1,800 bases of DNA from the NCBI RefSeq assembly GCF_003334355.1, contig NZ_QOWP01000080.1, one strand, 5' to 3'. The stretch comes from Escherichia coli (GTDB lineage Bacteria > Pseudomonadota > Gammaproteobacteria > Enterobacterales > Enterobacteriaceae). The notes below the pieces were generated by a model. It was not told the DNA's origin. It worked only from the letters and a program-made list of their open reading frames with translations, and did not search any database. The position numbers were made by a program, and so were the translations under genes. Positions 1-1,800 of this stretch are shown here, in pieces. The first letter of the stretch is position 1. Every line of letters begins with the position of its first letter.

Positions 1-1800
1 GTCAGCCTGCCGTGACGGTCATACCGGTAAAGATAGTGCGCGTCACGGGCGATACGGTTATCCGGCCACATGCTGAGGGTGCTGTCCGGGTGCAGCTCCG
101 GGTCGGGCAGGCGGTTGCCCGCCGGGTCCGTGGCATACGGGATGCGGATATCCAGATTCGCTGCGGTGGTGTGAACGCCGGTCAGCCTGCCGGTGGTGCT
201 GTAGCTGTAACTCCGGGTCTGGCGCGGGCTGCTGATGCGGATGAGTTCGCCGTTGTCGTTCCAGGTGTAATCGCGGTCATACTGCAGGCTGTTCAGGTGC
301 TGACGCTGTAACTGCCCGGCAGGGGTGTAAGCGGTGGTGAGTTCATAACGACCGAAGCTGCGCAGCGTTTCCCGGTGCAGGCGGTCGCGGGTGAAATCCA
401 CCAGCGGTGTGTCGCCGAGCTTCATGCCTGCCAGCCAGCCGCTGCCGTAGGTCAGCCATTCCACGGCGGGCAGGCTGTCCGGTATACAGCGGTTCGCCAG
501 CCCCTGCGCGTTGTACGCATGTCTGGTCTCATGCTGCCAGAGCAGTGCTTCCGTCTCCGGGTGATGCACCGTCTGGCGCTCACCGGTCAGGCGGCCTTTC
601 TCATCATACCTGTAATGCACCGCCACCCGGTGCCCTTCGCTGATATGGCTGATGTCTGTCAGCCAGCCACGTTCGTCATACTGCCACCGCTCTGCGGTTT
701 CACCCTTCACGGTGCGGTGCGTGAGGCGGTCTGCTTCGTCATAGTGCCAGTGGGTGACCAGACCCTCATCCTCGCTGCGGATAAGTTTGCCGGTCAGGTC
801 GTGGTGATAACGCTGTGTGCGGCCGTCAAAGCCGGTTTCCTGTATCAGCCGGTCAAGTACATCGTAACGGAAGGTGGTGTGGCTGCCGTTTTCACTGGTC
901 AGGCGGATGACCCGTCCGGCAGCATCGTATTCCATACTGCGCGTCAGCCCGCCCTGCGTGGTACGGACGGCCTTTCCCCACGCATCGTACTGTGTCCCGT
1001 TTCTGCTGCCGTCCGGGGCAATGACGGCGGTCAGGTCACCGGCGATGTTGTATTCATACCGCGTTTCATGGCCCTGCGTGTCTTTCACGGCAATTAACTG
1101 TCCACGGCTGTCGTATGCGCGGTACTGACTCAGCCCTTCCTCGCGGTGCACCGCCGTCATCTGCCCGAAGCGGTCATGGTCATAACGGGTTACATAACCG
1201 GAACAGTCGGTGAAGCTCAGCAACTGACCGTAACGGCTCCACGTCATGGTTTTCCGGCTGCCGGTGGCATCTTCCGTTGCGCAGGGTAAGTCACTGTGTG
1301 GATTATCATAACGGTAGCGGGTGATATCGCCGTCAGGGGCAGTTTCCTGAATCAGACGGCCCAATTCATCATATTCCCGGCGCAATTCCAGCCCGTCAGG
1401 CCCGGTGGCTGACGTTAACTGGTTGTGGTGGTTATAGTAAAACGCCGATGCCCTGCCATCCGGCGTGGTTATGCGCGTGATGAGGCCCGTCACCACATCC
1501 GGGCTGTATTCTGTTGTCCGGCCTGCGGCATCCGTCTGTGTCCTGAGCCTGCCCACGGCGTCAAACTGACTCTGCGTGACGCTGCCGTCCGCGTGTTCCT
1601 TTTTCACCACCCGCTTCAGCCCGGCTTCGCCCTGCGTGTGCAGCACTTCACGGCGGTCCAGGCTGTCGGTGATGGTGATGTGGTCTTTCTCATACTGATA
1701 CGTGTAGCTTAAGCCTGCCGGGTTAAGCTGTTCTGTCACCCGCCCGTCGCTGTCGTAACGGTAACGGATTTCCGGCCGGCCCGTGTGACGGTGCGCCACC
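1..1800 (-). CDS. Rhs-family YD-repeat core protein (RhsA-D-like polymorphic toxin scaffold), internal fragment, partial at both ends; N-terminus beyond coordinate 1800, C-terminus beyond coordinate 1
   Basis: Seen in sequence: the reverse-complement frame whose first full codon is 1799..1797 (GTG) runs 599 codons to 5..3 with no stop; coordinates 2..1 are the start of the next codon. Translation begins [74 protein letters not shown] and ends [21 protein letters not shown]. It carries many YD-repeat motifs, e.g. [127 protein letters not shown]. Composition is GC-rich (35/60 and 40/60 G+C in two hand-counted lines). Established knowledge: this motif pattern and periodicity define Rhs/YD-repeat shell proteins. 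Paralog and species cannot be assigned without a database search. Confidence 0.92.

Follow-up and report, generated by a model that had tools for sequence, protein, structure and literature searches.

An internal segment of a clade I Rhs gene from Escherichia coli and the locus architecture of its nearest relatives

Encapsulation, autoproteolysis and immunity have been established for Rhs proteins other than the one considered here (PMC3150448, PMC8636562), and in solved Rhs and Tc-toxin structures the shell encloses the protein's own C-terminal toxin (PMC8636562). Cleavage takes place after the second of two DPLGL motifs that are separated by 17 residues, with the catalytic aspartate located in the second motif (Jurenas et al. 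2021, PMC8636562), and a DPXGL-(18)-DPXGL protease site was likewise described for Tse5 (PMC9637101). For E. coli, Jackson et al. 2009 (PMC2935791) found that the cores are almost identical and are told apart mainly by non-homologous tips that are able to change loci; total tip diversity was very large, tips were exchanged between loci, and recombination of clade I cores between different loci was judged infrequent. The VgrG carrier of RhsA-C, if any, was stated to be unclear (PMC7216683).

Here, we analyzed an 1800-nt stretch of E. coli DNA (hereafter, the window) together with its copies in complete genomes and the flanks of its nine nearest loci. The window very likely lies within a clade I (RhsA/RhsB/RhsC-type) Rhs gene of E. 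coli or Shigella that is encoded on the minus strand, and by homology the region to its left should be organized as in its nearest relatives. Both the family and this locus architecture are textbook knowledge, and the window itself holds nothing new.

Extent and family of the window gene

The window is read through by one minus-strand frame (599 codons at 3-1799, zero stops), and the remaining five frames hold 6-33 stops each. Shuffling the window 500 times gave longest open frames of 170 codons on average and never more than 369, so the 599-codon frame is not a product of chance. The frame reaches both window edges without a stop, and the gene therefore extends beyond the window on either side, with its 3′ end to the left. 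The sequence-only reading, which was made before any database search, had described a minus-strand gene that leaves the window on the left while still inside YD repeats, and this description holds: the last nine residues of the frame are YRYDRHGRL (3-29, minus strand). It had also stated that the DPxGL core-end motif is not visible, and a motif scan of all 599 translated residues indeed found neither DPxGL nor even D..GL. The two features of the gene are:

1..1800 (codons 3-1799), minus strand: Rhs core gene, internal fragment (open reading frame, RHS_core and RHS_repeat matches, nucleotide identity)
1..120 (codons 3-122), minus strand: the flagged segment, i.e., the last 40 codons of the window frame, ordinary YD-repeat core with no boundary motif

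Residues 2-599 aligned to positions 356-959 of the 1261 positions of the NCBIfam profile RHS_core (NF041261; E=0, 1223 bits, where the curated cut-off of 2000 bits applies to the whole protein and the score of the 599-residue fragment is proportionate per position), which leaves ~300 profile positions to the left of the window. Pfam RHS_repeat (PF05593) matched the frame 12 times (10 at E<=0.001), and the NCBIfam model TIGR01643 (YD_repeat_2x) matched at E=2e-38. In RhsA/B/C-type proteins of ~1400 residues the frame covers residues 347-945, which lie in the YD-repeat shell, and it resembles E. coli K-12-type RhsA/RhsB/RhsC (clade I) in frame, repeat pattern and profile register. The closest solved Rhs shells were those of P. 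aeruginosa Tse5 (8cp6, E=9e-68, query residues 2-570) and P. laumondii Rhs1 (7q97, 4e-44), followed by 8qja (7e-42) and teneurin-like proteins (3e-19); the YD-repeat shells of Tse5 and Rhs1/Tre23 (7q97, 7pq5) are homologous to that of the window. Judged by these alignments, the window is predicted to encode approximately the middle 600 residues of a YD-repeat beta-shell.

A plus-strand open reading frame of 240 residues at 375-1097 (261 codons open), antisense to the Rhs gene, was dismissed as most likely the shadow frame of a GC-rich, codon-biased gene. No RNA families were found in the window with Rfam.

Core copies and haplotypes in E. coli

Over all 1800 nt, the window DNA was 99.1-99.5% identical to genes annotated as 'RHS element core protein' or rhsB. 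In megablast searches, copies that span 80% or more of the window were present in 3,896 of the 5,426 complete E. coli genomes, the median number of places per genome being 5. No 100% copy was found in these 5,426 genomes (best 99.5%), and the same was true when only the sub-window 280-720 (441 nt) was searched against complete E. coli genomes (best 99.5%). Exact window patterns of 100-120 nt gave no match in species-representative genomes, JGI metagenomes or IMG/VR. The best identities to the window were 98.2% in the plasmid collection and 97.9% in the phage collection; these matches look like misfiled chromosomal E. coli DNA. The plasmid matches (among H68-H79) include E. coli records of up to 4.8 Mb, and the phage matches are unannotated sequences of 1.6-3.3 kb. 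When the 599-residue translation was searched against proteins, the matches were mainly partial Rhs proteins encoded on short draft contigs, and none was identical. Dozens of E. coli draft contigs, 1.6-2.2 kb long, contain nothing but this stretch of Rhs core and encode partial proteins of 540-760 residues (P0009-P0046 and others), which implies that short-read assemblies routinely break or collapse at the Rhs core.

For a closer comparison, nine loci (L001-L009) were used, which differ from the window at 9-35 of 1800 nt (98.1-99.5% identity); the sample is biased in that each locus represents only its genome's best match to the window. They occupy three chromosomal positions:

RhsC position, ybfA-rhs-ybfC beside kdp: L001, L003, L006, L007
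RhsB position, nikR-rhsB-yhhH: L002, L005
RhsA position, yibF-rhs-yibA/yibG: L004, L008, L009

The nine-locus SNP table contains 70 variable sites, and the window has a private allele at none of them. Its alleles are those of the L002/L003/L008 haplotype at 1-431 and those of the L001/L005-7 haplotype from 501 on, with a single switch between 431 and 501 and an exception at position 1725, where L001, L005 and L007 differ from the window. When set against the RhsA/RhsB/RhsC genes of complete genomes, the SNP pattern of the window is that of a recombinant of two known haplotypes. The stretch in which it departs from one of them is:

303..431, minus strand: patch of eight SNPs at which the window has the alleles of the L002/L003/L008 haplotype instead of those of L001/L005-7/L009 (SNP tables)

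This patch is the trace either of an exchange between Rhs paralogues, by recombination or gene conversion, or of a chimeric assembly. Assigning the window to a locus by its SNPs failed, because haplotype and locus do not go together and because L001-L004, which span RhsA, RhsB and RhsC positions, are identical at 1-300, the part nearest to the tip. Across the full 1800 nt, L005 (RhsB), L006 and L007 (RhsC) and L009 (RhsA) differ by only 1-5 nt, and L003 and L006, both at the RhsC locus, are 47 nt apart. That haplotypes cut across chromosomal positions points to gene conversion between paralogues, unlike the infrequent exchange between loci that was reported for clade I cores (PMC2935791). The core sequence identifies neither the chromosomal locus nor the tip, the latter because near-identical cores at three loci carry four different tips.

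Core end, tips and immunity genes of the nearest loci

The core frame continues leftward in eight of the nine loci (L001-L007, L009), and its DPIGL ends at exactly 838 nt from window position 1. The core end had been expected several hundred bp to about 1 kb to the left, and by homology with these loci the estimate was well placed. The sequence at the core end of this subfamily is YDPLQGRYITQDPIGL, and the boundary reads RYITQDPIGL. Of the strict PxxxxDPxGL pattern named in the sequence-only reading, the DPxGL part is therefore present and the leading proline absent. The landmark to look for is DPxGL-(17)-D(P/S)xGL, with cleavage expected past the second motif. This second motif (DPLGL, DPQGL or DSMGL) is spaced exactly 17 residues from DPIGL in each of the four tip types, and the NCBIfam core profile reaches through it. 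A DPxGL-(17)-DxxGL signature is common to the window's relatives, the T6SS Rhs effectors Tse5 and Rhs1/Tre23, and TcC (the last cited from PMC8636562, not matched in our searches). The tip types diverge after DPIGLKGGWN, i.e., inside the protease signature (L001-L007, L009; 838-904 nt left of position 1), so each cassette carries its own second motif. In the YbfC-linked tip this motif is DSMGL and lacks the proline. By analogy with the cleavage sites described previously (PMC8636562, PMC9637101), the released toxin probably starts 22 residues further on, ~904 nt left of the window.

Pairwise comparison of L001 with L002 gave 97-100% identity up to 838 nt left of the window and random similarity thereafter. 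The variable part after the core measures 152-186 residues in L001-L007 and L009, and the stop codon of the intact relatives lies ~1.30-1.40 kb left of the window. The drop in G+C content that the sequence-only reading anticipated after the motif is present in the relatives, with values of 0.60-0.61 for the rest of the core, 0.38-0.43 for the tip and ~0.35 past the tip (0.42 for the IS1-disrupted L003). The order it gave for the family, with a variable tip, an immunity gene and then H-repeat elements or orphan pairs, was likewise recovered in the nearest relatives: a small immunity gene (ybfC, yhhH, yibA or yibG) is located downstream, and further on there are ISAs1/ISEc1 transposases (H-repeat), a HEAT-repeat fragment, orphan 'RHS repeat-associated core' fragments and an Imm57 pseudogene. 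The following immunity genes were inspected:

L001:6072-6641, minus strand
L002:6247-6630, minus strand
L004:5856-6317, minus strand
L009:2841-3683, minus strand

The N-termini of YbfC, YhhH and YibG are hydrophobic and signal-peptide-like, and that of the HEAT-repeat protein YibA is not. Taken at face value, these N-termini would suggest periplasmic targets for three of the tips and a cytoplasmic one for the Ntox34 tip.

The prevalence of each tip among the 5,426 complete E. coli genomes was estimated with a junction query (150 nt of core plus 300 nt of tip, coverage of at least 80%):

YbfC-linked tip: 3,537 of 5,426 genomes
YhhH-linked tip (DUF4329): 2,645 of 5,426 genomes
YibG-linked tip: 3,471 of 5,426 genomes
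YibA-linked tip (Ntox34): 1,763 of 5,426 genomes

Together, the four common tips account for ~58% of core-end places (~11,400 junction-bearing genomes vs. ~19,700 places), a rough ratio, because its numerator counts genomes and its denominator places, and because tips sitting on orphan core fragments are counted too; at the remaining ~40% of clade I core ends, complete genomes have different tips. Two of the four are named in Pfam (Ntox34 and DUF4329). A search of NCBIfam assigned neither the toxin parts of the four tips nor YbfC and YhhH to a family; of the remaining immunity proteins, YibG has a weak sub-threshold match and YibA corresponds to PRK09687 ('putative lyase'). Most of the tips are without known activity. 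Since all nine nearest cores bear one of these four very common tips, the unseen tip of the window is most likely of the YbfC-linked, the YhhH-linked DUF4329, the YibA-linked Ntox34 or the YibG-linked type.

Expected mechanism, competing readings and significance

If the window's gene shares the architecture of its relatives, as their homology suggests, it would continue leftward with 838 bp more of core, DPIGL, 17 residues and D(P/S)xGL, the two motifs forming a putative aspartyl autoprotease site. A low-G+C toxin of ~130-165 residues, the stop codon, the cognate immunity gene and ISAs1/H-repeat elements or orphan cassettes would follow. Its product would then act as a polymorphic-toxin carrier, in which the beta-shell encloses the C-terminal toxin, aspartyl autoproteolysis frees it and the downstream immunity protein protects the producer. 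The relatives differ from the structurally characterized effectors in their N-termini and gene neighborhood. Tse5 and Rhs1/Tre23 have PAAR or prePAAR N-termini and their genes adjoin vgrG/eagR, whereas the window's relatives are 'orphan' and carry DUF6531 with a marginal PAAR fragment (in residues 1-400 of the nearest relative, L001, DUF6531 matched at E=3e-17 and PAAR only over 19 residues at E=0.18). No vgrG or other T6SS genes were found beside the nearest loci, which are flanked by ybfA/kdp, nikR/nik and yibF/selA; the combination of PAAR/prePAAR and vgrG/eagR linkage that characterizes T6SS-delivered PAAR-Rhs effectors is thus not seen in the nearest relatives.

Two readings would leave the window with a different left flank, and both are unlikely. 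One is that near-identical Rhs paralogues were collapsed or joined into a chimera during assembly, in which case there would be no single true left flank and the contig might stop inside the repeat. Such an origin would explain why the window is an exact mosaic of two haplotypes with zero private alleles and one switch (431-501), and why a 100% copy was found in no complete genome, even over 441 nt; the many E. coli draft contigs made only of Rhs core also fit it. However, natural gene conversion between paralogues gives the same pattern, finished genomes show near-identical haplotypes at the A, B and C loci, and the window itself contains no signal of misassembly, so that we consider this origin improbable. 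Slightly less probable again is a pseudogene or remnant, in which a frameshift, premature stop or IS element just left of the window would prevent the expression of a functional tip. A truncated remnant was the alternative that the sequence-only reading had itself named, and such loci are real: L008 (RhsA locus, strain 2017.06.04CC) differs from the window by only 15 nt, carries a frameshift annotation and runs into a stop 79 codons beyond the left edge, and L003 has IS1 and ISAs1 insertions and a truncated ybfC. They are nevertheless a minority, as the other eight of the nine nearest loci are intact through to the tip, and the 599 codons of the window are free of stops and frameshifts.

The most novel outcome is also the least probable, namely that ~0.9 kb to the left there is a new toxin/immunity pair, absent from the catalogue of E. 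coli Rhs cassettes, which would have reached an ordinary clade I core through the recombination between paralogues that also produced the mosaic. Tips other than the four common ones at ~40% of clade I core ends would leave room for it, as would the large tip diversity and the exchange between loci (Jackson et al. 2009, PMC2935791), but all nine nearest cores are linked to very common tips, an unseen tip is unlikely a priori in the most heavily sequenced species, and nothing in the window speaks in favor of one. The prospect of a new tip raised by the sequence-only reading thus found no support. An internal piece of an ordinary clade I gene, with the leftward organization of its relatives, remains the reading that we favor with high confidence.

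The tendency of short-read assemblies to break or collapse at the Rhs core matters for any attempt to extend such contigs. The practical lesson is that an Rhs core segment taken alone identifies neither locus nor tip, and homology cannot replace the true flank. A new tip, if there were one, would enlarge the already large pool of known cassettes by one without founding a new type of system.
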